Shown piece by piece: positions 2,860 to 64,000 of a stretch of DNA of 64,000 nt. The stretch comes from Candidatus Poribacteria bacterium. Lineage in GTDB: Bacteria > Poribacteria > WGA-4E > PCPOR2b. The notes below the pieces were generated by a model. It made no database searches, was not told where the DNA came from, and saw only the letters and a program-made list of their open reading frames with translations. Numbering within the stretch: position 1 is the stretch's first letter; every line of letters begins with the position of its first letter. Location of the stretch: assembly GCA_965116925.1 (NCBI GenBank), contig OZ220744.1, positions 3,168,001-3,232,000 on the forward strand, in the 5' to 3' direction. The position numbers and the translations under genes are program-made.

Positions 2860-3110
2860 TAACCTAAGTTGCTAGTCGTTGAAAGTCTACCGTTTTTTGC
2901 CGGGGCGGGTCACCCCGACCATCTGGTCGGTCCTTTGTCTTTCGCTCCAGAGGAGCGATATGTCTATAGAACCGCAATAGGGTGGATACCCGCGCTCCAG
3001 AGGAGCGCAATGTGTATAGCCAGGGCCAAGCACTGCCGATAAATTCAGGTCCTAGGAACGGATTGGCGAAGTCGGAACCGAGCGGGTCTTATAACTAGCA
3101 ACTTGCGTTA
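2860..3110. mobile_element. MITE family C (TIR TAACCTAAGTTGCTAG...CTAGCAACTTGCGTTA)
   Basis: Imperfect 16-bp TIRs; other copies 3259-3419, 47370-47586, 61948-62247; 3-4 bp flanking direct repeats. Confidence 0.7.
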
Positions 3111-3113
3111 AAA

Positions 3114-3254
3114 TAGGAGTTACGCACTTCAGATTGTAGTTGCCCGATTCATCGGGCGTATTGTAGTTGCCTGATTTATCAGGCGTATTGTGGTTGCCGG
3201 CGGCGATAAATCGCCGAACTACAAGGCGTTGAGCGTTCAACTGCGTAAGTCCTA
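3114..3254. mobile_element. MITE family B (TIR TAGGA[C/G]TTACGCA...TGCGTAAGTCCTA) carrying inverted GTAG hairpins
   Basis: 13-bp TIRs; copies 3998-4363, 6879-7041, 39956-40093, 55438-55703, 61956-62094. Confidence 0.8.
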
Positions 3255-3258
3255 AAAG

Positions 3259-3419
3259 TAACGCAAGTTGCTAGTAGCCAGCATATTCCAACCAATAACC
3301 CCTAATCCCTGTGCAAATTGTATCATTTATGTAGGTCAATTTTCCAAAATCGACGATTGGGTGTCGAGATGTGAATCTCGACCTACTGATAGGTTTCCAA
3401 TAACTAGCAATTTAGGTTA
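3259..3419. mobile_element. MITE family C copy
   Basis: TAACGCAAGTTGCTAG...CTAGCAATTTAGGTTA; AAAG on both flanks; GTAGGTC hairpins inside. Confidence 0.7.
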
Positions 3420-3541
3420 AAAGTATTAGGCACACTCCGTGTGCCGTAACCCATAGTCAGTTGACAGAATATCCGTGGTTGTCGATTGTGTCAATAAAAA
3501 AATAAAACGTTGTTAGTGGCATAGTCGGTAGAGCAAAATCC

Positions 3542-3900
3542 TAGGGGCATTTATAGTGAATTCAAAAGATAAAGAAACACTTGCGCTCCCCCGGTAGGTG
3601 CGGTTTGTAACCGCACCGGTTTGGCGTGTTTCATTAATTCTAAAATCTACTATAGTTTTAGGTTTTTTAACCGATCTCGGAATGGCCCAAAGTTGTAGGC
3701 GGGGCATCTAGTCTCCCCGCCGTAGTCCCGACCGGGAGATCGAGCTACGGGAGAATTAAATGACCCTAATAAACCTATAGGGTCATTTAGTTTTAGGTTT
3801 TTTGAATGATTTTGAAATGACCCGAACCCGTAGGCGGGGCATCTTGCCCCGCCGTAACTTCGACCGGGAGATTGAACTACGGGAGAATTAAATGACCCTA
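3542..3900. mobile_element. Two adjacent MITE family D copies (TIR TAGGG[G/T]CATTTA...TAAATGACCCTA); the first contains a family A element at 3552-3654
   Basis: Copies 3542-3768 and 3778-3900; shared GTAGGCGGGGCATC hairpin. Confidence 0.75.
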
Positions 3901-3997
3901 ATGACCCTATGAAAATGCTTGAATCAATTGATGAATTGTGATATACTGCTATAGTAACTTCAGGATATATGCTTTGACAAGCCGTAAGATACAATAT

Positions 3998-4363
3998 TAG
4001 GACTTATGCACTTCAGCGTTTTGACCTGTCAGGGACCTGCCAAATCCCTGACATTTGGCAAAGTTATGGTGCCATTTCAGTGAAAAACGGTTCATAAATA
4101 GGGCGTATTTGGCAGGGCAAAAAGCCATCTGGGCACACTTTCTGTTGGGTGCTAAAAATCTACAAACGCTCTGAAGCTAGGCCCCATCAGGGTTCAAAGA
4201 GACATCGGCTAATAATGAGCTCCCGATATGAGGTTAAATTTTTTTTTGGACCTGCCAGTGCCCTGCCAAATTACCGAATCGTGTCGGTAGGCCATTGAAA
4301 CGACGGTGTAATCTCCGTTACGCCGAAGGGGTTAGCTTTTACCATTCAACGGCGTAAGTCCTA
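3998..4363. mobile_element. Long family B element with a different interior
   Basis: TAGGACTTATGCA...GGCGTAAGTCCTA; internal CCTGCCAAAT/ATTTGGCAGG repeats. Confidence 0.6.
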
Positions 4364-4477
4364 AAAATATAACAACCTTGATCAAAAAGTAATCAAATCC
4401 TACGTAGGAATCGCTAGAACATTATAGTAGAAGATAAATGATGAGGGGCTGGCATGTACTGTCAATCAGGAGGTAAC

Positions 4478-4803
4478 TAGGGTCATTTATGGTGAATTCA
4501 AAAAATAAAGAAACACTTGCGCTCCCCGCGTTTGGTAGGCACTGTTTTCAACTGCGCCGATTTGCAGTGTTTCATTAATTCTGAGATCTACTATAGTTTT
4601 CGATTTTAGGTCATGTCCCGTTGTTCGTAGTCGCACATTCTATCCACACCCGGTAGGCGGGGCATCTTGCCCCGCCGTTGGGCGTCGTGCGTTCATTGTA
4701 CATTGTTAAGGTAGGTATGGCTGTCGTCTTTAATCCGTGTAATCCGTTAATCCGTGTTAATCCGCGATTCAGACAATAATATCCAGAGGATTAAATGCTC
4801 CTA
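4478..4803. mobile_element. Composite MITE (family D shell + family A at 4488-4595) inserted at the BMC-H RBS
   Basis: 9-bp direct repeat GGAGGTAAC at 4469-4477 and 4804-4812. Confidence 0.8.
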
Positions 4804-4822
4804 GGAGGTAACAATATCGATT

Positions 4823-5155
4823 ATGGCTGGAGAAGCTTTAGGGTTGGTTGAAACGAGAGGATTGGTTGGAAGCATCGAAGCGGCTGACGCAATGGTCAAA
4901 GCGGCAAATGTCCAACTTATCGGCTATGAAAAGATCGGCGGCGGGTATGTTACCGTCATGGTCCGTGGCGATGTCGGTGCTGTCAAAGCAGCCACAGATG
5001 CCGGGGCAGAAGCAGCTGCACGCGTCGGAGAAGTTGTATCGATCCACGTCATCCCACGACCACATGCAGATGTTGAATCGGTTTTACCCGTCCAAGAACA
5101 ATCCGATGACGACGCGTTGACGATTGATATTGCCAACGATGAAGCAGCAAATTGA
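4823..5155 (+). CDS. Bacterial microcompartment hexameric shell protein (BMC-H, PduA/EutM-like) with acidic tail
   Basis: [42 protein letters not shown]. Confidence 0.95.
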
Positions 5156-5176
5156 TAGAGTTAGGAAAGATCGCGG

Positions 5177-5887
5177 ATGAATGACAAGGCACTCATTGAA
5201 TTGGTCACTCATAAAGTGCTTGAACAACTGAAGCAAGATGAAGCACCTTGTGGTGGCTGTGCCTTGCGAACCTGCGGGGCTGGACAGCGTGCCTGTGACG
5301 CTGTCGTTCAGCAGCAGCAAATTCCGGTCGGTGTTTCTGCGCGACATGCACATGTCACTCAAGAACACTTAGAGATTTTGTACGGCGAGGGGCATCAATT
5401 AACAATTCACGCCCCTTTATACCAACCCGGTGCATTCGCAGCGAAGGAGACATTAACCGTCGTTGGACGACGTATGCAAGCAGTTGAGGGGCTTCGGATT
5501 CTCGGTCCCGTGAGAGATTATTCTCAGGTTGAACTTGCACAGACCGATGCGATTCGCTTGGGACTGAATCCACCGATTCGCGATTCGGGTGATCTCGCCG
5601 GTTCCGAGTCGATTGTATTAATCGGTCCCAAAGGATCTATTCACTTGGAAGAAGGTGCAATCTGTGCAACGCGGCATATTCACATGACTCCCCAAGATGC
5701 AGAAAATTGGGGGATACGCGAAGGAGATCTGTTAACAGTTCGCATTCCCGGCGAGCGAGCGTTGACCTTTGAGAACATTCATCCGAAAATATCACCAAGC
5801 TATGTGCCGCAGATGCATCTAGATACAGATGACGCTAACGCTGCCGGTTTGCGAGGGGGAGAAGGCGTCGAGTTGCTGAGAGATTAG
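5177..5887 (+). CDS. pduL: Phosphate propanoyltransferase (BMC phosphotransacylase) with N-terminal encapsulation peptide
   Basis: IPVGVSARHAH, QPGAFAAKE, RILGPVR, RHIHM, MHLDTDDANA; amphipathic N-terminal helix. Confidence 0.92.
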   Translation: MNDKALIELVTHKVLEQLKQDEAPCGGCALRTCGAGQRACDAVVQQQQIPVGVSARHAHVTQEHLEILYGEGHQLTIHAPLYQPGAFAAKETLTVVGRRMQAVEGLRILGPVRDYSQVELAQTDAIRLGLNPPIRDSGDLAGSESIVLIGPKGSIHLEEGAICATRHIHMTPQDAENWGIREGDLLTVRIPGERALTFENIHPKISPSYVPQMHLDTDDANAAGLRGGEGVELLRD

Positions 5888-5897
5888 GGGTAACTAA

Positions 5898-6659
5898 GTG
5901 GAGTTCAGTCCAGAAATCATTCGGCGGATTGAAGCAGAAGTAGCGAAAGCTCTTAAACAACAAGGAGTCGCTTTGACACCTGCCCAATCCGATAAACGGA
6001 TTCTGGCGATATTTGATGCCGCTGAAGTAGATCTCGCACCTGCTCTCGAACAGCTTGATAACTGTATTCAGGGTGGCTATGCCATTACAGCCATTTTGTC
6101 AGATATAGCGGCGAAGATCTTGGATATTTCCCGTATCCGATCCACATGCGGACAAGAACAGGTTTTCATAGCCAGTGAAATTACAAACCTTCAGCCTTTC
6201 GCTGAAGATTTCTCCGCAGTCATTATTCCAACGCTATCGTGCGCGATGGCGGCGAAACTGAGTTTAGGCATGGGGGATACGCCATGCGCTTACCTTGTGT
6301 TCCGAGCAATGCTTCGGGGGAGCAGGGTAATAGTAATGTCTGAGGGCTTTGAAGTCTCAGAGGAGCCTGAAATCCCACCTGAAATTTCAAAGTTAGGGAA
6401 AAATTACATCAAAACTTTGTCAGACTTTGGGGTTCAATTTGTTACCGCCGATCAGCTCGCTGAGACAATTCTAAGCAATGGTACGCAGCGTTTTAACCCA
6501 GCGAACGCAATAGGTGGGCAAAACATTATCACCGCCTCGGTGATTGCTGGGCTTCCACCAAATGTGCGTGAATTTCGTTACACCAATCCAGCGATCATTA
6601 CACCGCTTGCGCGGGATTTAGCAGCCCGAAAGGGCATTCGGCTCGTGGCAATAGATTAA
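5898..6659 (+). CDS. BMC-associated flavoprotein-like/PduM-like protein
   Basis: Encapsulation-peptide-like N-terminus; PTLS..AAKLSLGMGD; C-terminal IITPLARDLA motif; operonic with pduL. Confidence 0.65.
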   Translation: MEFSPEIIRRIEAEVAKALKQQGVALTPAQSDKRILAIFDAAEVDLAPALEQLDNCIQGGYAITAILSDIAAKILDISRIRSTCGQEQVFIASEITNLQPFAEDFSAVIIPTLSCAMAAKLSLGMGDTPCAYLVFRAMLRGSRVIVMSEGFEVSEEPEIPPEISKLGKNYIKTLSDFGVQFVTADQLAETILSNGTQRFNPANAIGGQNIITASVIAGLPPNVREFRYTNPAIITPLARDLAARKGIRLVAID

Positions 6660-6878
6660 AACCTGCAGGTTCATGTTAAAAAATCACGCAACAAGAACCG
6701 ATTTATAGTAAGTTCTAAGAATAAATAGACATTAAAAGTAGATAGTCTTTTGTACCACAATCTGTTAGATTGTGATCCCCTTTCGCCAACTAACAGTTCG
6801 TGCTACATTTGACGGATTGCCCCCTTGTGCTTTACACTTTCTTTTCACCTGAGCTAATCTGCAAAACCAATACTTGGT

Positions 6879-7041
6879 TAGGAGTTACGCAGTTGAATGC
6901 TCAACGTTTTGTAGTTCGGCGATTTATCGCCTCTGTACACTCGTCCCAACGCCCGATGAATCGGGCAACTACAACAGAGATTCCATAAGGGATTCGTAGG
7001 GAACGCAGATCTGCGTTCCCTACTGAAGTGCGTAAGTCCTA
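6879..7041. mobile_element. MITE family B copy
   Basis: TIRs with TTGGT direct repeat on both flanks. Confidence 0.8.
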
Positions 7042-7234
7042 TTGGTATCGTTTTTGCCACAGTTGTGTATCTCTATTGCTACGATTTGAACGCAACGGAC
7101 ACCAGATCGTCCTACCACTGTAGGGCAAACAGACCTTAAATCAATTGATAATGAACAAAACGCTTTCACGTTTCACGCATTACGTTTCACGCTTTTACAC
7201 CTTGCACTTTCTTTTGAGATAAGCCAATCAACTA

Positions 7235-7250
7235 TGGCATCTAAATTGCT
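7235..7250 (+). promoter_or_regulatory. Sigma-54 (-24/-12) promoter
   Basis: TGGCAT-CTAAA-TTGCT, GG-N10-GC spacing, about 140 bp upstream of ATG 7391. Confidence 0.65.
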
Positions 7251-7390
7251 ACTGATACAGATTACGACGTTCTATTGGTGGATAACGTCAAGTTCGCTCA
7301 TGGACTGTAGTTTCATGGGCGAACTCCTTGCATTGCGCAAGGGAGTCACGAAAATCCGCTTTGCTAGATGCACCTAAAAGGAGAGTTTCC

Positions 7391-9130
7391 ATGAAATTTC
7401 GCATCCCGACTGCCGTATGCCCGATGCTAATAATCGTCTTATTGACGCTCATGCCCCATGCTGCGCTAGCAGACTACGGCTACTTTTCGGACCGAATCAG
7501 TCGTGAACACCGAGACGCAGGTGATGTTGAAGACTGGGTTGAGCGCGGCAATGCGACTGTCACAGCAAGTCCTCGCTTTGAAAGCGGGATCCGCCTGACA
7601 GCTTGGGCAAATGAATTTGATAGAGAGGAAGACTACGAATTTGCTATAGCCAGTGCAGTCTATCTTTTTGAGATACCTCGACGAGCTCAGTATGTCGAGA
7701 TTTTGGTGCGCTACCGAGGGGAACCCCATCGGGCGGACTTTGATTACGAGGAGATTGCAGGGCGTGTTTGGATTCGCAATACCAAGCGTGAATATGCCCG
7801 CAGGAACTATAATGATAACGGTGAGGAGGAAACCCTCTACGGCGATACCTTCTTTTTACGCGCAAAACGTCGCTCAGAGACAATAAAGATTGCAACAGCA
7901 GGACATGTGGATAACGGTATCCTTGAAATGCACATAGTCGCTGAAAATGGCGAGCAACTTGATATCGAATATGTTGATGTTGTTACCTATCAACGACAAC
8001 CCGATGTTCGTGTTATACACCGTTACGCGCGAGATTACCACTGGCAACCTTGGCACAGATATACCTATCTCTATTTTTACGATGGCCCATTCTATTACTG
8101 CACGGATCTAGGGTATTACATCCGATGGAATTACCCAGTCTATGACCATCACTACCTTGCCATTCGTCGCACCTATGGCGGTTACCTCCACAACTACTAT
8201 CGCCGTTACCCGCGTCGCTACCACCGCGACTCCTACTACCATGTGAATGTCCATGTTGATAAATCGCCTAAGACGCGACGGCTGAATCGATGGACCCCAA
8301 CGCATGAAACGACCCGCCGCGAATATTCACGAAGCCGATTGTCAGTCACCAGATCGAAAGTGACCAGAACCGATGTACAAACCCGTGTCCGCACGCTAAT
8401 CACAGAGCATCGTCAGACACCAACGCTTTCGGATCGAGTCATCCAACGGTCAACGCTTTCTCAAAAGCGGAGACTTCCTAGTACAAGGAATAAGTCGAAT
8501 ACCACAATGCAACGACAGCGGGGTAATCAGCGTTCTGCCAGAGACACATCCACCCGATCGTATCCCTCAACTCAACGGAAACTTCCGAATACAAGGAATG
8601 AGTCGAACACGACAATACAACGACAGCGCAATAACCAGCGTCCCGCTAGTGACATCTCAACCCGATCTTACCGCTCAACTCAGCAGATCCTAAAACGTAA
8701 ACGTTTAAATTCAGTTGAGAGGGAACCTCGATCTAGCCTACAACCGCGCAACCGGCAACCTCGCACCTACCAGTATGATCGCTTCCGGTTTGCTCCACAG
8801 GACAAGCGTTCATCGGATAGTGAAGTCTCGACCCGATCCAACGCGGAACGACGGGCGCGCCTTTATAACCGAACGCAGTCTTCTTCGAGAAGTCGGTTGA
8901 GTACACCACCCTCTTCACGTAGCCGATCTTCAACCGTCAAACAAAGGACAGAAACGCGTAGTCGATCCACACAACCAAGATCTCGTTCATCTACCTCTGC
9001 TGCTCCGCGTGTCCAGAGACCAACAACTAAACAGACAACTTCAAGTTCAAGCAGCAAAGATGACGACGATGAAAAACGAGAACGGAGCCGCAGTACCACA
9101 AGAACCCAAACACGCAGTCGAAGAAAATAG
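7391..9130 (+). CDS. Exported hypothetical protein with Tyr/His-rich centre and long Arg/Ser/Thr-rich tail
   Basis: AGGAG RBS before ATG 7391; signal peptide ending ALA; low-complexity C-terminal half. Confidence 0.75.
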   Translation: MKFRIPTAVCPMLIIVLLTLMPHAALADYGYFSDRISREHRDAGDVEDWVERGNATVTASPRFESGIRLTAWANEFDREEDYEFAIASAVYLFEIPRRAQYVEILVRYRGEPHRADFDYEEIAGRVWIRNTKREYARRNYNDNGEEETLYGDTFFLRAKRRSETIKIATAGHVDNGILEMHIVAENGEQLDIEYVDVVTYQRQPDVRVIHRYARDYHWQPWHRYTYLYFYDGPFYYCTDLGYYIRWNYPVYDHHYLAIRRTYGGYLHNYYRRYPRRYHRDSYYHVNVHVDKSPKTRRLNRWTPTHETTRREYSRSRLSVTRSKVTRTDVQTRVRTLITEHRQTPTLSDRVIQRSTLSQKRRLPSTRNKSNTTMQRQRGNQRSARDTSTRSYPSTQRKLPNTRNESNTTIQRQRNNQRPASDISTRSYRSTQQILKRKRLNSVEREPRSSLQPRNRQPRTYQYDRFRFAPQDKRSSDSEVSTRSNAERRARLYNRTQSSSRSRLSTPPSSRSRSSTVKQRTETRSRSTQPRSRSSTSAAPRVQRPTTKQTTSSSSSKDDDDEKRERSRSTTRTQTRSRRK

Positions 9131-9190
9131 GGCTAACTTGCAACTAAAATAAAAAATAAAACGGTTAAGGCGGAATTTCTGCCGTAACTG

Positions 9191-9313
9191 TAAGGGCATT
9201 TAGTTTTTGGTTTTTTGACCGGTTTTGGAACGGCCCGAACCCGTAGGCGGGGCATCTTGCCCCGCCGTTGCGTTAACCAAGACATCGAGCTACGGAAGAA
9301 TTAAATGACCCTA
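9191..9313. mobile_element. MITE family D copy (no family A insert)
   Basis: Perfect 10-bp direct repeat GCCGTAACTG at 9181-9190 and 9314-9323. Confidence 0.85.
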
Positions 9314-9332
9314 GCCGTAACTGTTTTTTTTA

Positions 9333-9361
9333 TTGACAACGCTTTCAAGTTTTGCTATTAT
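9333..9361 (+). promoter_or_regulatory. Sigma-70 promoter
   Basis: TTGACA-17 bp-TATTAT with TG extension. Confidence 0.65.
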
Positions 9362-9387
9362 ACCCTTTTAGGGAGAGGTATAAGAAT

Positions 9388-9939
9388 TTGACCGGATCTC
9401 TAGTCAAGTTATTGAGTCTTACACTTTTGATTCCCATTTTATGCTTATCTTCACGGGTTCAAATCAGTGCCGCGCAGCCAAACGAAGACCTGCGCCTTGT
9501 GTCACCAATAGGGGCTATAGGGCGTTCTGCCGTTCTGCCCGGCTGGGGCCAGTTTTACGCACATAAGCGTATTTTGGGTGCCACATCTTTTGTGGGAACA
9601 AGTGGACTCCTTATTGGTGCGTTAATTACCCACCAATCCTTCCGAAATGTTTACAACAATGAGTATGTTCCAGTTGCGTTAATTGATGAGAAGTCTCCAG
9701 AAGCACTTTTTCAATACAATCGAGCGAATCAACGCTATAAGTTACGACAGTTTTTCCTCTTCGCTGCAGCGGGGATATGGGCGTATAGCTTGATTGATGC
9801 CTATGTTGGAGCGAATTTGTACAATGCGGAGGCAAAAGCGAACCAACTCATTGATGATATGAAGCAGCTTGAAGAATTGGGCGTACAACTTGAAGTGACT
9901 CCAACACAACTTCAACTGGGTATTGTCAAATTCTTTTGA
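9388..9939 (+). CDS. DUF5683-like membrane protein
   Basis: SAVLPGWGQFY and WAYSLIDAY motifs; TTG start at 9388 chosen from RBS and promoter position. Confidence 0.65.
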   Translation: MTGSLVKLLSLTLLIPILCLSSRVQISAAQPNEDLRLVSPIGAIGRSAVLPGWGQFYAHKRILGATSFVGTSGLLIGALITHQSFRNVYNNEYVPVALIDEKSPEALFQYNRANQRYKLRQFFLFAAAGIWAYSLIDAYVGANLYNAEAKANQLIDDMKQLEELGVQLEVTPTQLQLGIVKFF

Positions 9940-9983
9940 AAGGTCGAGCGAACACATCTGGCCCTTATGGAGGAAGTCTAGCC

Positions 9984-10565
9984 ATGTTAAAAGTATTTGC
10001 TAAAATCATTGGGCTATTGCTCGTTTTTAGTTTGCTTACAAGTTGTGGAGATGTAAGTAGTGTTACCAAAGTTCAGTCAAAAGAGCTGGTCTTAATTAAC
10101 CAAGTTCTGAAAAACTGGCGCGAAGGCTATCAGAGTGAAGACCTTGATATGTATATGAGCGCGTTCTGGGAAGACGGATTCCTTTACGTCTCAGATATGG
10201 GCACCATGGATGATAAAACAGATGATGTCATATTTGATGACATCCGCGACGAAAGAGATTCCGCAAAGCGCGTGTTTGACAGGTTCCAAGATATTGAGAT
10301 TGAGTTGTCTGAACCACCTGAGATACAACTGAATACAGACCGGACACGAGCTGAAGTCAGAAATCATTATCGGATTCAAGGGTTTGTCGCTGATGGCGAC
10401 TCACTCGAAGGAGGATATACGGGATGGTTCGCTGAAGGGAATAATATTTTCACCTTTGAGTTAAGAAAAAGTCAGGGAGCCGATAATCAAGAGTGGCGCA
10501 TCACCGAATGGAAGGATGAGGCGTATAGCGAGGAACAGATTAGAGCCGCCAACAACCTCCAATAA
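9984..10565 (+). CDS. Acidic lipoprotein, probable NTF2/SnoaL-like fold
   Basis: GGAGG RBS; LTSC lipobox; helix..YMSAF..strands..WRI pattern. Confidence 0.7.
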   Translation: MLKVFAKIIGLLLVFSLLTSCGDVSSVTKVQSKELVLINQVLKNWREGYQSEDLDMYMSAFWEDGFLYVSDMGTMDDKTDDVIFDDIRDERDSAKRVFDRFQDIEIELSEPPEIQLNTDRTRAEVRNHYRIQGFVADGDSLEGGYTGWFAEGNNIFTFELRKSQGADNQEWRITEWKDEAYSEEQIRAANNLQ

Positions 10566-10730
10566 TTTTTCGATGTACCGCCTAAAAGTGTTCTAGCAAA
10601 GATTTTCCCCTCGACAAATTTTTGCTAGCGTTTTATGATGTCCACCTAGTTCTACCTACACGGTGTAGATTCTACCCCTCTTGTAAGGTTTATTAGGTGC
10701 GACTTTTTAACGAAAAACCGTTTAGGTCTA

Positions 10731-10763
10731 AATCCCAATGCTTTAGCTTTGGGAGTACGTCAA
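10731..10763 (+). mobile_element. Probable relic IS200/IS605-family terminal hairpin
   Basis: AATCCC-N4-CTTTAG-N4-GGGAGTACGTCAA; no tnpA/tnpB ORF nearby. Confidence 0.5.
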
Positions 10764-11098
10764 CTGCCTGAGTTTTTACTAATCCGAGACTCTGCAATTT
10801 ACGGCTACCAGAATTTATGTAGTTTCGACCTCAATGCTTATCCAACCGGTATTTAACCTACCCCTATTTTTTACCAACCTATTTCGATATTTCCGTCCGG
10901 TAATGTTGGTCGCAACCCTAGAGAACAGTCGGCCAACATTTTTGCTCAACATCTGGAAATGATTCAGCCTGATAACTGAATTCCAGCTGCGCTGCCTAAA
11001 AAATGTCCAAAAATAAGGAAGATTCGTTCCAATGTGAAGGGTTCAGTCCATTTTTGACCCATCTACTGATACATCATAATTAATTTAAGAAAAAACAC

Positions 11099-11127
11099 TT
11101 GACAGAAAATTGCAGAAGTGTTATCTT
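11099..11127 (+). promoter_or_regulatory. Sigma-70 promoter
   Basis: TTGACA-17 bp-TATCTT with TG extension. Confidence 0.55.
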
Positions 11128-11686
11128 AGGAATTACTTTTTTTCAAAGCAGAGTTTTATTGGCAAAAAAAGTATAAATTGAATAAAGATTAGACCTGAAT
11201 TTTCGTGCTTTTGTGGTGGCAGGAAGGATGCGAAACGGAAGTGGCTTCTAAGCCAAGTATGTGGATCATCCGGATCACTGAATGAGTAATAGCTCAACCT
11301 CAATCAGTATCTAACTTTGAATGTTAATTATTTATATGCCAACCGTTTTCAGATGCTTGTATCCCGATAGATCGGGCTGCAAGGCTTAACCTGATGCCGC
11401 TGGAGACCAACTCCAGCAGAGAAAATGTAAAAATTGCTTTTGCACCACATCTGGGTAACTAAATAGTTTTGTATTGCTAATAAGTCCGGCTAAAGGAGGT
11501 TGCGATATGTTCCACCACTGACGCAAGTTAAAATGGGAAAACGGGTGATAAACGGTCGCAAACTCCAAAACCGTGATTGATTCGATTTCCTTAATTTTAA
11601 CTTGGTGTTTGGATGAACGTGATTACGGAGGTTTATATCCTCACTTTTACGTCAAATGTAATTTATGATTTCCTCAAAGGAGGCAA

Positions 11687-14600
11687 ATGAAAGTAATGAA
11701 GTTTTTCAAACGATCACCTGATGTTCTTTTGATAATAGCAGGGCTAATCGGTTGTTTCGTACTCTATGGGTGCGGTGCAGCTAGCCTGGGCCCACAGGAA
11801 CCGCTTTTACCAACGGTCGAAGGACAGGCAAACTTTTCTGACCGCTTCCAATTGGAAGAAGAACCCCAGTTCTTCTATGACCTGTTTGGTAGAGAACTCC
11901 TCGAAGGTAACGAGGTTTATAATTACCGTGAGGAGAAACAATTTGATCAAAACGGAGAACTAATTGTAGGTTGGACCGGTCAGCTCGATAGCGAACGATT
12001 TTCCGCCCAGTTGGACCGCCAGGTTTTAACCGAAGATAATTTCCGTGGAAGATTTACGCAATTCGTCATTGGCGACAATATGCGTATTAAGCCTCAAACC
12101 CTATTCCCGAACCGGTATGTCATCTACAAAACGGAATTTGATGGTTTCCGATGGGATATCTCGTTCTCTCAAGAACGTCACCTTTTCACATTGTTGAATT
12201 CTCGTATCTCTAACCCGGTGAAGCTGTCTGACGCAGCGGCGAACCTCGCACCAACACTGGGACGGCGTAATGGCCTGAGCGATGATGTCGGTCTCCGCCA
12301 TATTGAGAACGCGCGTTTAATCGGGTTTCGTGCACAAGGGTTGCTAGGTGATGTATTCCGGGTAGGACTCACCTATGTCAATCTCCACAAAGAACACCCA
12401 GAACGGGTTGAGAATCCGCTGTTTGGTGGAACGGTTGCCAATACACCGCCAGAGCGTCTCATCGTTGTCTTCCGAGATGATTCTCCAGAAGATAACCATT
12501 ATGGCGCATTGGCACATGACCTCGAAAGACCAGAGCATGTTAGCAGGATTCAGGGTGGAGTCGGTGCTGCCGTTAAGGGGATGAAGGTACACGTTATCAC
12601 GCAAGCACTGTCCGGCTCCCCCGAAGACGGTCCAGACCGTCCGTTGGGGCCCGAGAGAAGCCAGACGATCACCGTTTTTATTGATGACATCGTTGCTGTA
12701 GAGGGCAGTGCTGATCCGATTGAATCCTCTGATGGACAATGGAAAATTGCCGAAGGATTCAATAAGATGCAGTACACCTTAGACCTTACTTCTGAAGAAC
12801 TTCCCAACGGTCCCATCGATCCGCGTACAGTCAAGTCCATTGAATTTGAAATGACGGTCGCTGGAGATTATAATATCGTTGTCATCGGATTTAGTGAGGC
12901 AAACAGATCAGACGATCCACTCGCGGCAGAATGGATTAAGACCGAAGATGGTCATATCGAATCGCCGTATCGTGATGTGCTGCAAGCCCCCGGCAATTAT
13001 GGCAGATCAGATCATTATACGACAAACAGGCGTAACCTGCTACATAACCCAAGCGACTGGGAAAATGAAGGTGCAGCGCGTACGATTCGGTATCGCTACG
13101 GTGCAGCACGTGCTGGTGTCCTGTACGGTATCGACTTAGAGGGAACTCTCTTTAATACCTTTATCCGTGCGCACTATTCAATCAACGGAAAATTTAAGCA
13201 GTATCCAACCATTCCGAGAGACCAGATCGGGTTCAGTCGCCTGAATCCTGAAATTGAAGGCTCTAACGTCACTATAGACGAAACAGAGACGACGGAGGAT
13301 GGATTGCCTAACCCAACCTTCGGAGTGCCTCTTGATGCTAACGGCATCCCCACATACTCTGAAGCGGAAGGTGAAAGATTTGAAGCGAAGTTGAATGGTG
13401 ATCCGAATGATGACGGAGAGATGGGGCGTGAAACTGCTTGGTTTATCAACCTTAAGCAGCGTTACGGCAAACTCTTCCTTGAGCTAACGCGTTATCATAT
13501 TGATCCAGGATACACAACAACCTACTATAATTTCGGTGCGAACGATGCAAGAGATGCGACCTACTCTCTTGACCGAACACCCGAATCTGGTGCAGAAGTC
13601 CTTCCCTTCGATGAGATTAACTATGCACTAATTGAAGACGATGATGACGACGACGACTGGCCAGATAGCATCGACTTTGACGGTGTTCTACCGCAAGCCG
13701 ATGACCGTGACCAGAACGGCATCCTCGATTTCCAGGAAGACTTCCTCATCTTTGAGGCAGATCCCCCGGTCTTTGAAGATCTCGTTGATGAGAATAACAA
13801 TGGCGTTGTTGATTCGTTGGAAGATGATTTTGAGCCGCAGTATGAATACGGTATTAACCGTGATGGCTATCATATCAGTGCCAGTTACGACCTGCTCGAT
13901 AACATGACCCTCAAATTGGGTTGGTTAAATGAGAGCGAAGTTTCCAGCCAGCGGAAAAACGATTCAAAATACGCCCATCTGCGCTACCAACGTGACGTTC
14001 CAGATTTTGGAACAATCCTGTTCCAGAACCGCTTTGTCCGCGTTGATGATGATATTCCAGATTACTCGATTACCTTGCGTCCGGGCGAGTTAGATGCCAC
14101 ACAGGAATCTGATTTTCTCGATTTCTTTAAAACACGGGTCAATGTGACAAGCCTTCAGTTCCTCTACAGTGCGATTCCCAATTTAACGCTTGAAACTAAA
14201 TTCTTGGTTGACTGGCGGAAGCAGTTAGCACTTGATGAAGAAGATGCCGTTGCATTGGATTTTATCCAAGACGATATAGCGGAAGAAAAGGATGATCACG
14301 TTGATTTCATGGTGCTGGATGAGCAGGTCCGCGCGGATGGAGACCGGAAGTCATTCCCGTTCTATCCAGACCACGGGCTGAACCCGCTCAATCCAGAGGA
14401 TCTTGGGTTGATCTACGATCCAGAAAACTGGATACCACGCCGATTCCAAGAAAAAACCGTTCGGAATCAGATCACCATTATCAGAGCCAAATATGAAATC
14501 CCATTGGGCGATTTGCCAGGGGTGGACAGAATTGGTGAGGATTTAACCCTGACACCGATGGCAAAGTATATTTGGACGCGAGCGTTTGATCATACGCAGG

Positions 14601-25845: not shown

Positions 25846-26065
25846 TATAGTGAATTCAAAAAATAAAGAAACACTTGCGCCACCCCGGTAGGTGCGGTTT
25901 GATGAAGTTTAAGTATTTAAATCGGTAATCCCGCTTTTCCTCGAAACATACGGTAGGCGCGGTTTTCAACCGCGCTGGTGTCGCTAGCAAATTACCGAAT
26001 TATTTTTTTAATTTTCATTAACCGCACCGGTTTGGCGTGTCCCATTAATTCTACAATCTACTATA
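25846..26065. mobile_element. MITE family A (ends TATAGTGAATT...AATCTACTATA) interrupted by 117-bp family F element at 25902-26018
   Basis: Uninterrupted 102-108-bp copies at 3552, 4488, 31179, 35876, 55566, 61119. Confidence 0.85.
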
Positions 26066-31168: not shown

Positions 31169-31477
31169 CAGGGGCATTTATAGTGAATTCAAAAAATAAA
31201 GAAACACTTGTGCCCCCCATGTTTGGTAGGCGCTGTTTCCAACTGCGCCGGTTCGGAGTGTCCCATTAATTCTAAAATCTACTATAGTTTTCGCTTTTTG
31301 ACCGTTCGGGCTGACTCGAACCCGTAAGCGAGGCATCTGGTTTCCTCACCGTTTGTAGTAGCGCAATTCATTGCGCGTTCTTATGCCAACTGTCGATAGC
31401 ATCTTTTATCCGTGTAATCGGTTAATCCGCGTCTATCCGTGATTCAGACAATAATAGGGGAGAATTAAATGACCCTA
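31169..31477. mobile_element. Composite MITE (family D shell + family A at 31179-31286)
   Basis: Same architecture as 4478-4803; T-rich 9-bp near-duplication on the flanks. Confidence 0.75.
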
Positions 31478-31557: not shown

Positions 31558-31830
31558 ATGGGCGAAGCATTAGGATTGATTGAAACAAGAGGTTTAGTTG
31601 GTGCAATCGAAGCAGCAGATGCGATGGTCAAAGCTGCCAACGTAACGCTCGTTAGCAAAGAAGAGATTGGCGGTGGTTTGGTTACCGTCATGGTTCGTGG
31701 TGATGTTGGGGCGGTTCAAGCCGCCGTGGAAGCCGGTGCTGAAGCCGCAAAGGTTGTCGGTGAATTAATCTCTGTGCACGTCATTCCGCGTCCCCACGCA
31801 GAAGTTGAAAATATGTTGACTCGTGGATAA
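31558..31830 (+). CDS. BMC-H shell protein (PduA/EutM-like)
   Basis: [33 protein letters not shown]. Confidence 0.95.
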
Positions 31831-33612: not shown

Positions 33613-34273
33613 CTGTAGGTCGATTTTCCAAAATCGACACTCTTTCATAGGCACAGGTTTCCAACCTGTACTTGCCCACAGGTAGGCGCGGTTCCCTAAC
33701 CGCACCGCATTCACTCAAACCCGGTAGGTGCGGTTTCCAACCGCACGGTTCTTCGTAGGGGTTGGGTTTCCCAACCCTTTGTTCACACACCAGAGACGAC
33801 TTCGGACTTCTGTAGGTCGATTTTCCAAAATCGACACTCTTTCGTAGGCACAGGTTTCCAACCTGTACTTGCCCACAGGTAGGCGCGGTTCCCTAACCGC
33901 ACCGCATTCACTCAAACCCGGTAGGTGCGGTTTCCAACCGCACGGTTCTTCGTAGGGGTTGGGTTTCCCAACCCTTTGTTCACACACCAGAGACGACTTC
34001 GGACTTCTGTAGGTCGATTTTCCAAAATCGACACTCTTTCGTAGGCACAGGTTTCCAACCTGTACTTGCCCACAGGTAGGCGCGGTTCCCTAACCGCACC
34101 GCATTCACTCAAACCCGGTAGGTGCGGTTTCCAACCGCACGGTTCTTCGTAGGGGTTGGGTTTCCCAACCCTTTGTTCACACACCAGAGACGACTTCGGA
34201 CTTCTGTAGGTCGATTTTCCAAAATCGACACTCTTTCGTAGGCACAGGTTTCCAACCTGTACTTGCCCACAGG
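33613..34273 (+). repeat. Tandem array of about 3.3 x 197 bp, five different GTAG hairpins per unit
   Basis: Units start at 33614, 33811, 34008, 34205; one difference noticed (33647). Confidence 0.95.
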
Positions 34274-39955: not shown

Positions 39956-40093
39956 TAGGAGTTACGCACTTCAGTTTGTAGTAGCGCAATTCATTGCGCG
40001 TTCTTCCCTCCCACTGCTTGCGAGGGAATAGAGGGGGACGGGCGATGAATCGCCGAACTACAAGGCTTTGACCATTCAACTGCGTAAGTCCTA
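39956..40093. mobile_element. MITE family B copy
   Basis: TIRs with TTTTAG direct repeats. Confidence 0.8.
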
Positions 40094-41946: not shown

Positions 41947-42066
41947 TAGCTTGATTCATGTTAAGAAATCCCGAATCGTAGGGGCGGGGTTTCCCCGCCC
42001 GAAAAGGAACCAGTTGTTTTCACGTTTTACGCATCACGTTTCACGTCCTTAAGGAGTTTATCGGCC

Positions 42067-43541: not shown

Positions 43542-43571
43542 TTTAATGAACTAATGAACTAATGAACCAAC

Positions 43572-45104: not shown

Positions 45105-45246
45105 CGTAGTATAATGCTAGGGTCTGTTGACATTTGCAAACCCAACTTTATTTTTCATCGGAAAGCCTCTCCAGCAGAAGGTTATGTCGTAAAGGCAATC
45201 TTTTGTACCACAATCTGTTAGATTGTGATCTTCAGTCCGCAAACTA

Positions 45247-46152
45247 TGGTAGATGATAGAATTACTGATACATTTGAATAATATCCTCAATAGACATTTC
45301 TGTTTGATATTGTTGGATTCGCTTTATATTAGCAAAATCGTGTTCAATCGGATTGTAATCCGGGGAATAAGGGGGTAAAAACATCAGACTCGCCCCTGAA
45401 GCCTCTATTAACTGTCGGGTCTTTGGCGTTTTGTGAAGTCGTGCATTATCAAGGATTACGACGTGTTTTGAAGTCAAGCGTGGACATAACTGCCCGGCTA
45501 ACCAATCATTGAAATCGTTGGCTTTGCAACTGCCTTCAAATAACCGTGCCGCAGTGAAGGTATCTTCAAAACGTGCGGCAATAAGTGTGGTGGTCCGAGT
45601 GCGTTGACTGGATATAAGGTCAAACACGGGTGTGCCTAAAGGCGCATAGCCATACCGTCTATAACCGTCGTCTCGAAAGCCACTCTCATCGGCATAAACT
45701 ACGGATTTACCAACGATTTTGACTTGTTCGAGTTGTTGACGATAGGCGTGTCGTTTTTCATCGCACCGCTCCTTATAACCGAGGGTCTTTTTTTTTCGCG
45801 TGTACCCTAGCCGTTTGAGGCTATACCCTATACAGAAGGTCGACACTCCAAAATGAACGGCGCGTTCTTTGAGGGTCTGGTCTGGAAAATCAGCAACATG
45901 TTGTTTCAGCGCATCATAATCAATAGACCGGGGCCCTCGGGGACCGGGGCGTTGATAAGCGAATGGATCCGGGGCGTTTAGCCACTTATAGATAGTGGTC
46001 CGTCCGACGTTAAACCGTTTAGCGGCTTCTGTTTTGCTGCCGCCGGCTTGTATGAAATCAAGGACGCGTTTGCGTAAATCGGGTGAATATCTCATAATAC
46101 TTATATCGTAACACATTTCTAAATAATGTTCACTTATTTATATTATCTACCA
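45247..46152 (-). mobile_element. IS630-family insertion sequence (906 bp)
   Basis: TIR TGGTAGATGATA/TATTATCTACCA (11/12 match); TA on both flanks. Confidence 0.92.
45262..46095 (-). CDS. IS630 DDE transposase, single reading frame
   Basis: YSPDLRKR HTH; DESG; LDNARLH; LPPYSPDYNPIE. Confidence 0.93.
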   Translation of the reverse strand: MRYSPDLRKRVLDFIQAGGSKTEAAKRFNVGRTTIYKWLNAPDPFAYQRPGPRGPRSIDYDALKQHVADFPDQTLKERAVHFGVSTFCIGYSLKRLGYTRKKKTLGYKERCDEKRHAYRQQLEQVKIVGKSVVYADESGFRDDGYRRYGYAPLGTPVFDLISSQRTRTTTLIAARFEDTFTAARLFEGSCKANDFNDWLAGQLCPRLTSKHVVILDNARLHKTPKTRQLIEASGASLMFLPPYSPDYNPIEHDFANIKRIQQYQTEMSIEDIIQMYQ

Positions 46153-46415
46153 TAAATGAGTTTTAAGAAATTAAACGGGTAATTCTATATTGCTCCCAGA
46201 CCCGGTAGGTGCGGTTGGAAACCGCACCGGACATCGCTCGGAAATTACCCAATTAATAAATTAATCTTCATACAGTTTGCGCTACATTTGTCAGATTGCC
46301 CGATGACTACAGCGTTTGCCGAATTAGCTATATCAAAATGTCAACACGCCCTAGGTGCTCGCTGATAAACCAAGCGTTGGCAACCGGCGCAAGAGTCGGG
46401 AGTTGGAATTCCCTC

Positions 46416-47369: not shown

Positions 47370-47586
47370 TAACCCAAGTTGCTAGGTTCTGTTGACATTT
47401 AACGGTCCGTAGGTTGGGTTGAACGGGAACCGTGAAACCCAACAATGTCCCCCTCCGTAGGTCGGGCATCTTGCCCGACTCATAGCCCCAGCGGGGCGAC
47501 ATGTGTATAGAAAAAAGGATAAAACCAGCCAGCCCCAGCGGAGCGACATGTATGTGGCATCGTAACGCAACTAGCAACTTAGGTTA
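47370..47586. mobile_element. MITE family C copy with several hairpin cargos
   Basis: TAACCCAAGTTGCTAG...CTAGCAACTTAGGTTA; GTT direct repeat. Confidence 0.75.
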
Positions 47587-48589: not shown

Positions 48590-48700
48590 GGCTCATATTA
48601 AAAAAGCACAAAATACTGAAAAAACCGTAGGCGGGGCATCTTGCCCCGCCCGTCCGTGCCAAAAACTCGGTTTCTGTTGCACGCTTTCTTAACATGAACC
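48590..48700. mobile_element. MITE family G (GGCTCAT[AG]TTAA...TTAACATGAACC)
   Basis: Perfect 8-bp direct repeat TTACGATT; relatives at 26078, 60980-61228, 6668, 41955. Confidence 0.8.
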
Positions 48701-54081: not shown

Positions 54082-54198
54082 ATGAAGTTTAAGTATTTAA
54101 ATCGGTAATCCCGATTTGCCTCCAAACACACGGTAGGCGCGGTTTTCAACCGCGCCGGTGTCGCTAGCAAATTACCGAACTGTTTTTTTAATTTTCAT
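54082..54198. mobile_element. MITE family F (ATGAA...TTCAT, 117 bp) inside a REP hairpin loop
   Basis: Close copy of 25902-26018; splits CACAATCTGT/TAGATTGTG. Confidence 0.85.
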
Positions 54199-55437: not shown

Positions 55438-55703
55438 TAGAACTTACGCAGCTGAACATTCAAAGCCTCGTAGGGGCTACTCTAGTGGTTACCTTCAAAC
55501 ATTACCAAACTGTGAATCCACAATTTCGTAGGGAACGCAGATCTGCGTTCCCTACAACCGCTCACTATAGTGAATTCAAAAAATAAAGAAACACTTGCGC
55601 CCCCCGGTAGGTGCGGTTTGTAACCGCACCGGTTTGGCGTGTCCCATTAATTCTAAAATCTACTATAAATTGCGCTACTGCAAGCTGAAGCGCGTAAGTC
55701 CTA
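55438..55703. mobile_element. Family B shell containing family A (55566-55667)
   Basis: TAGAACTTACGCA...CGCGTAAGTCCTA. Confidence 0.75.
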
Positions 55704-55704
55704 A

Positions 55705-60979: not shown

Positions 60980-61228
60980 CGCTCATGTTAAGATTTAGTG
61001 CAAAAAAAACCGAGTTTTTTTCAAAACTCGGTTTCTCTTCGTGTTCCGCAAGTCCCGATTCTCGGGCTGCTCGGAACGACAGCGGAATCCCGATGTGTCG
61101 GGACTTGCACTTTCTTTTTATAGTGAATTCAAAAAATAAAGAAACACTTGCACCCCCCGGTAGGTGCGGTTTGTAACCGCACCGGTTTGGCGTGTCCCAT
61201 TAATTCTAAAATCTACTATATATGAGCC
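60980..61228. mobile_element. Family G shell containing family A (61119-61220)
   Basis: GCTCATGTTAA...TATGAGCC; AAACCGAG hairpin. Confidence 0.65.
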
Positions 61229-61324
61229 AACATTTCACCGTAATCAGACAATCAAGCGAGGTGCACAGACACATAGTCCTTCGTAGGGGTTGGGTCTCCC
61301 AACCCTTTGTTCACACATTACTCA

Positions 61325-61930
61325 TCAGAACCGAACCGATAATGTCGCGAGCCAACCGTGCGGTGTCCTGTTGATGCCAATAGACGGTCGTTTTTTGGCG
61401 TCCTGTTCGTTAAAATAGTTAATCATCTTTGACCAGACCACTGCGTCAGTGATTCCGCCGGTGTAGATTATCGCTGTCATCAAGCCCGCACCTATCAACT
61501 GCACTCTCTTCCCTTTAACCACCCGCAGCCCGTCTGTTTTATGCCAATATACAGCGTTTAGCGTCGTGCCACCGCCGATGATAGTTGCCAAAAAGAAGCC
61601 GCTCCCCTTGAGGTACTGGTTATTATAGATTTGCCCAGAGCCGGGGATAAGCGCGGACAACAGACCGCTGAGCGTCGGGTCTTTCTGTATCGTCGGCAAA
61701 GGGGCAACCCTCGGCGCAGGGCGCGATGGACGCCGGTCTATCTTAACAACATCTTGCATACTATACGTAAACACCTTGCCCTTTGCCGTCTCTATCGCCA
61801 CAGACACATTGGGGATCTCCCTGATAACTGTGCCTTCGATAACAGTGCCATTTTTCAGGTGTATGGTATCTGCGATGGACGCCGTGACAACAGACATTCC
61901 GATAACTAGCAAACAGACACAAAGCCGCAT
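61325..61930 (-). CDS. Exported/membrane protein with DUF5683-like C-terminal half
   Basis: Signal peptide; DTIHLKNGTVIEG; SALIPGSGQIY. Confidence 0.7.
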   Translation of the reverse strand: MRLCVCLLVIGMSVVTASIADTIHLKNGTVIEGTVIREIPNVSVAIETAKGKVFTYSMQDVVKIDRRPSRPAPRVAPLPTIQKDPTLSGLLSALIPGSGQIYNNQYLKGSGFFLATIIGGGTTLNAVYWHKTDGLRVVKGKRVQLIGAGLMTAIIYTGGITDAVVWSKMINYFNEQDAKKRPSIGINRTPHGWLATLSVRF

Positions 61931-61947
61931 TTATTAACCTCCTATAT

Positions 61948-62247
61948 TAACCTAATAGGAGTTACGCAGTTCAGTTTGTAGTAGCGCAATTCATTGCGCG
62001 TCCCGACAGGCTCGCCCGACTATAAACCGAAAATCTGACTGTAGGGGCAACCCTTGTGGTTGCCCGCTTTGAGCGTTCAAGTGCGTAAGTCCTACCTAAG
62101 TTACTAATTATTAAAAATCCATCAGAACCTGTAGGTCGAGATTCACATCTCGACACAAAACCGTCGATTTTGGAAAATCGACCTACAGATTGTACGGGGA
62201 TTAGGGGATCCTGGTTTGAATATGCCGACAACTAGCAACCTGCGTTA
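61948..62247. mobile_element. Family C shell whose left TIR is interrupted by a family B element (61956-62094)
   Basis: TAACCTAA[B]CCTAAGTTACTA; CCTAA duplicated. Confidence 0.75.
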
Positions 62248-62259
62248 TATTCCGTTTGT

Positions 62260-62757
62260 TCAGTCCGGCACCACGACAAACGCCTGCGCCATCCGATAGC
62301 ACGCAAAATCAGAATCCCGTAGCGCGTAGAGTTTGAGTTCCCGTTGCTCTTTGGTGACATACTTCCATTCATGTGAGTAGGGGCGTATCTCCTCGTTGGT
62401 CAGCTCCCACCGCGTAAAGCCCAACACCTCCAAAGACTTCATCGGTGTGTGGAAAGGGATACGGTGGTAGATGGTGAACCCAATCGCTAGCCCGTCACGG
62501 AAACTTATCTTGAGCCTCGACCCGTCGAGCAGCCGATAGTTGGTAGTCTGAAGATGTTCCGCGTCGATAGTCGTCTCTGAATCGAGGTGAGACAGCCGCC
62601 TGTCGATGTAGTCGGGACTCCGCATCAAAAGCGGCACAATATCTATCGTCGTCCGATCGCCGTAATCCGAGCACAAACGAGGACCCCCCCGCCCTGGAAA
62701 CGCACAGCCTGCCAATAACATCATCATCAACAGATACCACACCATTTTTTGCGTCAA
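62260..62757 (-). CDS. Hypothetical lipoprotein
   Basis: LAGC lipobox; overlaps the upstream stop. Confidence 0.6.
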   Translation of the reverse strand: MTQKMVWYLLMMMLLAGCAFPGRGGPRLCSDYGDRTTIDIVPLLMRSPDYIDRRLSHLDSETTIDAEHLQTTNYRLLDGSRLKISFRDGLAIGFTIYHRIPFHTPMKSLEVLGFTRWELTNEEIRPYSHEWKYVTKEQRELKLYALRDSDFACYRMAQAFVVVPD

Positions 62758-63191
62758 TGTTTTCTCCTTCGTGATTTAAGCACATTCGACTCGAAGCGAA
62801 CTACAATCTCACGGCACATCGCTTGCAAGTTATCATATTTACTAGTCACAACCGCGAGCTGAACGTTCTCATACAACCCACCGGTCCGGGAGCGGACCAA
62901 TTCATCGGCTATCTTTGAATTGTCGAATATCCGCAACGCAGCGACCCCCAACGCTACGTTGTCCGATTCTTTCAACCCGACAATCTGCAACTCGTAGTGG
63001 TAGGGGAACCGGTCGACAACGGTCACATTCGGCAACCGTTCCAACATCTCGACCGTGTGCTGTGCAATCGCCGCATCCAAGCCGTTTTTGCCGGTTGCAT
63101 TCACCCACACCCGAACCTGAAGGGCAGACGGATCGGCTTGTGGGAACGCAAAGATTACCAACCACGCAGTGAAGATGGATCGTAAAAACAT
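62754..63191 (-). CDS. Hypothetical exported protein
   Basis: Hydrophobic N-terminus; operonic spacing. Confidence 0.55.
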   Translation of the reverse strand: MFLRSIFTAWLVIFAFPQADPSALQVRVWVNATGKNGLDAAIAQHTVEMLERLPNVTVVDRFPYHYELQIVGLKESDNVALGVAALRIFDNSKIADELVRSRTGGLYENVQLAVVTSKYDNLQAMCREIVVRFESNVLKSRRRKH

Positions 63192-63201
63192 CGTTTAAGA
63201 A

Positions 63202-63789
63202 TCACCCCTTGATCACGGTGACAAATTGCAGGATCTGCCGAGTCGCATTCCCAGCTGCATCTGCGACAGCAATTTCAATGATGTAGGTTTGTCCGTGAAT
63301 CAATTGTTGTCCTGCAAATACAGTCAGTGTCCCAGTCTGTCCCACCACATTGGAAAGCCAGTTGAGGTTGACCCCAGCCGGATCTGTCAACTTAATAATG
63401 CCTGTCACCGGCTCATTAAAATGGAACTGTAGACCAGTCGCATTGATTGGACCCGGATTCACATTATCTGACCCATGAGTCACCGTTCCGCTAAGCATCA
63501 CCGGCGGTGTCGAATCTACGGCCGGCGGCAGAACATTCACTGTTGGTGGTTGAACCGTTACTGCTGGTGGATGCACGTTCACCGTGGGCGGTTGAACCGT
63601 CACCTCTGTTGGCTGAATGGTTATATCCGGCGGTTGAACCGTTACCTCTGTCGGCTGAATAGTTACATCTGGTGGCTCAACATTTACCACGGGTGCCGGA
63701 GCGATGGGCGTATCTTCTTCAACGCCACAACCAAACAATCCTATCGCCACCAATACTATATACAGAAATCGCATTTTTTTCCTTTGCAC
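63202..63789 (-). CDS. Lipoprotein with 7-residue Pro/Val repeats and an Ig-like domain
   Basis: LFGC lipobox; about 8 VTVQPP[T/D]-type repeats; DSTPP..FNEPV..ADAAGN. Confidence 0.75.
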   Translation of the reverse strand: MQRKKMRFLYIVLVAIGLFGCGVEEDTPIAPAPVVNVEPPDVTIQPTEVTVQPPDITIQPTEVTVQPPTVNVHPPAVTVQPPTVNVLPPAVDSTPPVMLSGTVTHGSDNVNPGPINATGLQFHFNEPVTGIIKLTDPAGVNLNWLSNVVGQTGTLTVFAGQQLIHGQTYIIEIAVADAAGNATRQILQFVTVIKG

Positions 63790-63911
63790 AGTTTAAGGCT
63801 TGATGTAAGTTTACATCTTTACAAAAAACCCGATAAGAAAGCGTATAGGATATTTTCATCAAAAAAACTTGGAAAGAACGAAAAACAGTATTATGAAAAT
63901 TATTACCAATT

Positions 63912-64000
63912 TATAGTGGATCTTAGAATTAATGAGACACGCCAAACCGGTGCGGTGACAAACCGCACCTACCGGGGGCGAAAGTATCTATTTATTTTTT
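63912..64000 (-). mobile_element. Family A MITE, reverse orientation, cut by window edge
   Basis: TATAGTGGATCTTAGAATTAATG..GGTGCGGT..ACCGCACCTACC. Confidence 0.8.

Follow-up and report, generated by a model that had tools for sequence, protein, structure and literature searches.

Seven families of miniature inverted-repeat elements with REP cargo, probably mobilised by DDE transposases, in a Poribacteria genome

The window analysed here, a 64,000-nucleotide stretch of DNA (positions 3,168,001-3,232,000) from the single-contig genome of a Candidatus Poribacteria bacterium (6.47 Mb, 49% G+C; G000, the source genome below), carries short elements with inverted-repeat ends, which we call shells, and inside most of them lie repetitive extragenic palindromes (REPs), short hairpins preceded by the tag GTAG. 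A sequence-only reading of the window had distinguished seven shell families, A to G, by their ends and target signatures, and all seven end types are indeed present; pairing of matching end motifs within 1,200 bp of each other, the definition of a shell used genome-wide, gives 24 pairs in the window (seven A, six B, five D, three C, two F, and one G), to which inspection adds an E shell at 45120-46351 and an F shell of a second subfamily at 46156-46271. The G end motif stands in the window as variants, the motif as originally written having no exact match there. [quoted passage not shown]

Shells and hairpins in the window

Positions in this section are those of the window. At its left a C shell with IS982 ends (2860-3110; 3-bp duplication), the type of a 6-copy subfamily, contains two palindromes that lack the GTAG tag; the B shell beside it, with IS701 ends (3114-3254; three REPs), has flanks disrupted by adjacent C insertions, and a second C shell follows at 3259-3419 (4-bp duplication; an inverted REP pair). 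The D shells, which have ISAs1 ends, lie at 3542-3768, with an A shell (3554-3652) nested in the left end and one REP in each; at 3778-3900, where the duplication is not intact; at 4478-4803, with a 9-bp duplication, a nested A shell (4490-4593), and a site that is empty in 4 aligned relatives; at 9191-9313, with a 10-bp duplication, one REP, and a target that is present just once in four of the five relatives, the fifth being unresolved; and at 31169-31477, again with a nested A shell (31181-31284). Further B shells are a REP-free 364-bp type with several similar genomic copies (3998-4363); one with a 5-bp duplication, three REPs, and an empty site in all five of five relatives (6879-7041); one with a 6-bp duplication and an inverted REP pair (39956-40093); one with an A shell (55568-55665) nested inside it (55438-55703); and one with a 5-bp duplication and two REPs (61956-62094).

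An A shell with IS630 ends at 25848-26063, from an 18-copy subfamily, has a REP whose loop contains an F shell (25902-26018), itself with another REP; two more A shells lie within a G-type remnant starting at 60980 (61121-61218) and at the right edge, extending 10 bases beyond the window end (63914-64000). The E shell, with IS5-type ends, contains a REP pair, the F shell of the second subfamily at a REP loop, and a complete IS630 insertion sequence (IS) on the minus strand (45247-46152), which occupies a TA site, encodes a 284-aa transposase (45262-46116), has four identical genomic copies, and is a candidate mobiliser of family A. The remaining shells are a C shell with a 3-bp duplication, four palindromes, and an E left end at 47385 (47370-47586); a G shell with IS1595 ends and an 8-bp duplication (48590-48700); and an F shell in the centre of a REP hairpin (54082-54198), with a 1-bp duplication and a site that is empty in the congener G005. 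One tandem REP array on the plus strand (33607-34273; 197-bp unit, several hairpin classes) stands free, without paired shell ends.

The sequence-only reading had also named one hairpin as recurring in D and G shells and another as recurring in A and F, and both recur as described: the D-and-G hairpin lies at 3830, 4653, and 9243 in D shells and at 48627 in G, the A-and-F hairpin at 3594, 55607, and 61160 in A shells and at 46205 in F. Its description of the interiors as built from GTAG-tagged palindromes does not fit the untagged C shell at 2860-3110 or the REP-free B shell at 3998-4363.

Shell ends, target duplications, and autonomous partners

Genome-wide, end-motif pairing finds 244 A, 153 B, 50 C, 33 D, 34 E, 72 F, and 8 G shells. 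Scored as the longest exact flanking duplication, with flanks of different copies paired as the control, duplications have the predicted family-specific lengths well above control in four families: 5-6 bp at 78 of 153 B shells (control about 1), 3-4 bp at 37 of 50 C shells (3.2), 9-10 bp at 15 of 33 D shells (0.0), and 1 bp at 52 of 72 F shells (19.1). Duplications of 7 bp, the upper end of the range first given for B, are rare (2/153). An 8-bp duplication flanks 2 of 8 G shells under the strict pattern, and a pattern-free scan yields 22 G copies with duplications of at least 8 bp; the 60 largest end clusters of the same scan, which required duplications of at least 4 bp, include no family beyond these seven. 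Families A and E have fixed targets (225/244, control 220.0, and 27/34, control 26.8), for which swapping flanks is uninformative; the target duplication of A is settled because its sites are empty in relatives, while none of three E sites was resolved in the comparison with G005.

The 573 shells of at most 600 bp are short and non-coding and have terminal inverted repeats, and 54 of them sit within another shell, 30 of these being F in A. On their sequence, all seven shell families can be regarded as real MITEs, of type II in the sense in which the relevant passages of PMC10969869 use the term.

For each family we found an autonomous DDE partner whose ends match, a check proposed by the sequence-only reading. 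The source genome itself holds the presumptive parents of C (an IS982 element of 943 bp, 7 copies), D (an ISAs1 element of 1,322 bp, 3 copies), A (two types of IS630, one with 3 copies and the other with 4, one of these elements being that at 45247-46152 in the window), and F (an IS630 element of 1,241 bp, 2 copies); the F transposase matches NF033545 at 161 bits (cut-off 100) and also PF13358, which identifies it as an IS630 DDE transposase. For B the parent is an IS701 element of 1,039-1,073 bp with B ends at 22 of 24 loci fetched from congeners, 16 of the 22 having 5-6 bp duplications; it has matches in 11 of 19 congener genomes and none in the source genome at E 1e-20. For G it is an IS1595 element, 2 of 30 fetched congener loci having G ends and 8-9 bp duplications, again with no match in the source genome. 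The E parent is the weakest link, a distant, single 857-bp IS5 element with E ends from an unrelated contig, found among 33 viral-contig loci. Candidates for the B, E, and G parents in the source genome were rejected as other ISs that had inserted into shells: IS701-type elements within A ends, IS5-type elements within G, and an IS630 within E. No G-ended IS was found among 29 viral-contig loci, no F relative in viral contigs, and no match to a B shell copy in plasmids; all plasmid matches to the F transposase were below 60% identity (26-28% among the best ones listed).

In families A-F, likeness between shell and IS stops 12-38 nt into the MITE ends, which is roughly as far as the terminal repeat extends, and the parents that we inspected lack a REP cassette, 18 of 22 B elements being without any REP-pattern match. 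Target duplication lengths are specific to each family and equal to those of the DDE element with the same ends.

The two inspected copies of a 425-aa IS701-family element (nine full-length matches in the source genome) are inserted at an identical position in an A shell end (locus L096 and G000 1746010-1747492), with what reads as an 8-bp duplication; and an IS5-family element lies within the right end of a G shell in two copies of equal length (locus L100 and G000 5899568-5900548).

REP cargo and its movement

Of 32,991 GTAG sites, 1,868 (5.7%) have a hairpin directly behind the tag, compared with a median of 1.0% for tetramers (500 sites sampled each), and the cargo has the tag, the short hairpin, the extragenic position, and the high copy number that define GTAG-tagged REPs. 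Scored with a set of 12 hairpin classes (3 of them without the GTAG tag) or a generic tagged hairpin, REP-type hairpins occur in 522 of the 573 paired shells of at most 600 bp, compared with 813 of 2,865 length-matched non-coding windows (28%), and reach a density of 5.5 per kb in shells versus 1.36 per kb in other non-coding DNA. Since shell copies are not independent, we also counted by subfamily among the 439 duplication-bounded copies of at most 450 bp; REPs are present in 126 of 139 subfamilies and in 34 of 35 multi-copy ones. The pool of hairpins supposed to be shared among the families is only partly so: 9 of 12 classes are found in at least 2 shell families, but 133 of 170 subfamily records fall in the main family of their class (chi-square 448; permutation maximum 129, n=5,000), each shell having its preferred hairpins.

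Shell and cargo behave as a single moving unit, judging from the distribution of copies and from orthologous sites. Multi-copy subfamilies sharing both shell and interior, 35 in number, account for 335 of the 439 copies; in the variable-target families each copy has its own, differing duplication, and in the larger subfamilies median pairwise similarity is 0.87-0.96. The comparison with G005 covers 1.275 Mb and 628 intergenic pairs (median gene identity 91%) and yields 142 clean insertions or deletions (indels), one of which was dropped for a missing flank. Under admittedly loose patterns, with a few ragged ends, 37 of the 141 classed are bounded by shell ends, and 33 of these 37 contain REPs; the others comprise 9 with REPs and one end, 13 with REPs and no end, 12 tiny palindromic, 22 long, and 48 other indels. 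The 101 shells in the aligned regions include 19 whose site is empty in G005, 4 shared unchanged, 1 collapsed, and 77 unresolved, so that 19 of 24 resolved sites are empty, the outcome that the sequence-only reading had suggested looking for. The mobile units end at IS-type repeats with duplications, and not at REPs without DDE ends or duplication, as do REPINs, the REP doublets moved by REP-associated tyrosine transposases (RAYTs). Contigs from four public runs, compared with window positions 2500-12000, gave no clean shell-spanning joint among 15 listed of 214 joints; repeats confound this comparison, which is evidence in neither direction.

The genome has five matches to Y1 transposases, the family of the RAYTs, all outside the window, which itself has no RAYT gene. 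Three (loci L002, L003, and L005) pass the RAYT cut-off, L004 falls below it, and L001, also below, is an IS200-like Y1 gene that has been broken by an A shell at a TA site (L001:1188-1839), which we count in favour of DDE-driven movement. The flanks of these genes carry 5 of the 12 cargo classes as 28-33 bp matches at 91-100% (91-97% at the three genes above the cut-off), three tagged at L002, L003, and L005 and two untagged at L004 and L001; the remaining seven lie beside no RAYT gene in the source genome, the only one mapped for them. Every one of the 27 genomes in the family has a match to the RAYT family model, which exceeds the cut-off in 23. As part of the reading that we hold probable as a whole, the REP repertoire would stem, at least in part, from RAYT genes. 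The L003 flank itself contains an F copy, and its long matches to F and A+F interiors were for this reason rejected as circular. The untagged palindromes flanking the L001 gene also fill C shells, and the RAYT-like gene at L004 sits between genes that read like cas1 and cas2.

What is established is the DDE ends, the duplications, the partners, the REP-free parents, the gain and loss of whole units, and the nesting. In the mechanism that we favour, each subfamily would be founded once, by replacement of the interior of an IS or an older MITE with REP-rich intergenic DNA that leaves little beyond the terminal repeats; the cognate DDE transposase would then copy shell and cargo in trans, and much of the recent spread of REPs in this lineage would be hitch-hiking in MITEs. 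The target duplications, the multi-copy subfamilies, the empty sites, and the autonomous partners support one half of the original proposal, that REP cassettes are spread inside DDE-mobilised shells. Founding might involve single-strand recombination with a REP array, by RAYT strand transfer or template switching, a guess to which we give about even odds against plain capture of filler, and it might pass through a collapsed bare end pair that is then refilled, a route left open because bare end pairs exist and one arose by collapse in place. RAYT strand transfer, REP template switching, and plain filler capture all fit the founding step, and the data do not separate them.

Several observations weigh against this mechanism or limit it. 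The main gap is that in-place rebuilding may hide among the 77 of 101 unresolved orthologous sites; no transposition was observed; the B, E, and G partners were not found in the source genome in a strict search with the queries used; 4 of 22 autonomous B elements have one REP-pattern match each; and the looseness of the indel patterns belongs here as well. Nor are REPs confined to shells: about two-thirds of tagged non-coding hairpins lie outside paired shells (994, versus 484 inside), and with relaxed ends 686 of 2,377 tagged hairpins have no shell end within 300 bp, 890 lying between two ends and 801 beside one, while 5,000 random non-coding positions give 3,332, 538, and 1,130. Among the 13 of 141 indels that contain REPs without shell ends, about 3 are a single bare REP, the rest being array expansions, partial shells, and other elements.

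The explanation that survives best beside ours, and to which we allow a substantial though lesser chance, accepts that whole units move and holds that shells capture any abundant intergenic repeat, REPs and RAYTs having no special role. Some shells do lack REPs, including the multi-copy 364-bp B type; in relatives, G shells are filled with heptamer tandem repeats and one F shell with an unrelated repeat; and most interiors also match DNA outside the paired shells of their own family. Against neutral filling stand the excess of REP-bearing subfamilies over the matched windows and the position of the tag in B, which follows the end within 3-14 nt, the spacers between them being highly varied, in 118 of the phylum's 151 genomes (25/25, 86/100, and 6/10 by family, 0/4 in a fourth family, and 0/11 outside the order), related genomes not being independent and those with a single hit being background, as the reversed pattern gives 0-1 hits per strand.

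We think it rather unlikely, if attractive, that RAYTs are the builders of MITEs, their single-strand cleavage and joining swapping IS interiors for REP cassettes, so that REPs time and again take over unrelated DDE transposases. If true, REPs would generally have a second way of spreading, in which RAYT is needed only at founding, and a transposon that finds hairpin tips by their shape, family F, would have adapted to the REP-rich DNA that results.

The other half of the original proposal, that REPs colonise shells already in place, has fared worse. Here RAYT would insert REPs locus by locus, the shells serving as harmless targets, and family B with 38 different interiors among 78 copies, the bare end pairs (one of B, 26 bp long and with a 5-bp duplication, and others of A, 22 bp long), and the RAYT-family genes throughout the family of genomes speak for it. 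Most copies, however, share their interior with copies elsewhere, identical builds occurring at many sites with different duplications; the resolved orthologous sites are mostly empty and are not bare shells; and the sole remodelled shared site is a shell collapsed to a bare end pair in the source genome, not a gain. We give this account little credence. That a HUH enzyme (RAYT) moves the whole units, the inverted ends being merely palindromic flanks, is very improbable even though nearly all shells contain a REP and three shell families have no DDE partner in the source genome with the queries used, since duplication lengths are family-specific and match the DDE element with the same ends, and HUH transposases are not known to duplicate their targets.

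Family F, related systems, and neighbouring features

F MITEs and their parents insert at the centre of short palindromes: at least 5 of 6 positions pair at 66 of 71 F MITE sites and at 21 of 23 autonomous sites, compared with 0.65% of random non-coding sites, and the target stems include 16 different hexamers. A duplicated central base is present at 53 of the 71 MITE sites, compared with 19.0 after shuffling, and at 17 of the 23 autonomous ones. Canonical IS630 elements insert at TA and duplicate it; F duplicates one variable base. Its transposase has about 60 residues between the second Asp and the Glu, more than in IS630 generally. Of the targets, 17 do not belong to the main REP class; all of these have the duplication and 16 are palindromic. 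F targets include none of four abundant palindrome types, which have 107, 88, 73, and 71 intact copies, so that targeting depends on loop-adjacent sequence too. Distant metagenomic relatives of F (35 of 80 loci could not be delimited) have palindromic sites at 18 of the 45 that could (shuffled 2.5) and 1-bp duplications at 14 of 45. The F transposase seems to choose its target by DNA shape, and may by analogy attack hairpin tips, as PMC1618415 describes for RAG.

Some F insertions (loci L112, L113, L114, and L115 and several source-genome sites) have mirror-image flanks in place of the duplicated base, and at loci L109 and L280 the flanks come from two different hairpins, which suggests that palindromes were corrected or that F copies recombined with one another.

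MITEs, REPs, RAYTs, and REP-targeting ISs are all known, and their nesting has been noted in passing in Anabaena in 2013. The prokaryotic type II MITEs treated in PMC10969869 and PMC3184786, among them Correia/NEMIS, RUP, and Nezha, are as described there like the present shells in being short and non-coding, with terminal inverted repeats, target duplications, parent likeness confined to the ends, and empty sites in relatives; the shells differ in that the interior is a cassette of another class of selfish repeat, and in that seven families derived from six IS families share one genome. The cargo resembles the GTAG-REPs, REPINs, and RAYT systems portrayed in portions of PMC3733652, PMC6006769, PMC3116915, and PMC8266576 in its tag and hairpin, extragenic position, hundreds of copies, doublets, tandem arrays, and RAYT genes flanked by the same hairpins; unlike in those accounts, what is gained or lost between species mostly has DDE ends and a target duplication at its borders in place of REP ends.

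To call the combination undescribed goes too far, as GTAG-15 dimers lie inside long TA-ended palindromes, not called MITEs, in Anabaena variabilis (Di Nocera et al. 2013, PMC3733652). There, too, a REP cassette occupies an inverted-repeat shell and empty shells were not found; that case is one family, mentioned in passing and read as REP insertion into a palindrome, and section 7 of the paper gives no parent IS, duplication, or empty site. Family F, like the REP-targeting ISs surveyed in PMC1525189, lands in REP hairpins at a fixed position, as ISRm22 is reported to do at the palindrome axis; the main text of that survey has five IS families and no occurrence of IS630. F also differs from those elements in accepting many stem sequences and duplicating one base. 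Tiny repeats nested in themselves and in minitransposons are said by Elhai et al. in 2008 to occur in Nostoc. We found no paper devoted to REP-filled MITE families or to a 1-bp-duplicating IS630 in a search of mostly open literature, outside which supplements (e.g. those of PMC3733652 and PMC11602168) fall. New here are seven families with parents, statistics at the level of subfamilies, and an indel count of shells versus bare REPs.

The spread of REPs is called poorly understood in a passage of PMC8266576. In this lineage ordinary DDE transposases would spread repeats usually credited to another enzyme, and parents, passengers, and empty sites occur together, which makes this route directly testable; REP copy number need not mirror RAYT activity, and family F would be a case of a DDE transposase that picks targets by the shape of the DNA.

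The tiny palindromic inserts of 18-123 bp (12/141 indels, 11 of them in G005; e.g. G000 2589151, 3368505, and 4623762) land in heptamer repeats, in REP loops, and in other copies of their own kind, and may represent a further mobile repeat of very small size. Heptamer tandem repeats lie in intergenic DNA at window positions 7160-7200, 42020-42050, and 43545-43570 as well as in the G shells of relatives. Microcompartment genes (PF00936 shell protein, PF06130) lie at 4823-5887 and 31561-31830, the second short shell-protein-like gene, near 31561, being 74% alike over 188 nt. Gene-less remnants at 10715-10770 and in 270-400 bp indels relative to G005 have ends that we take to be of IS200/IS605 type.

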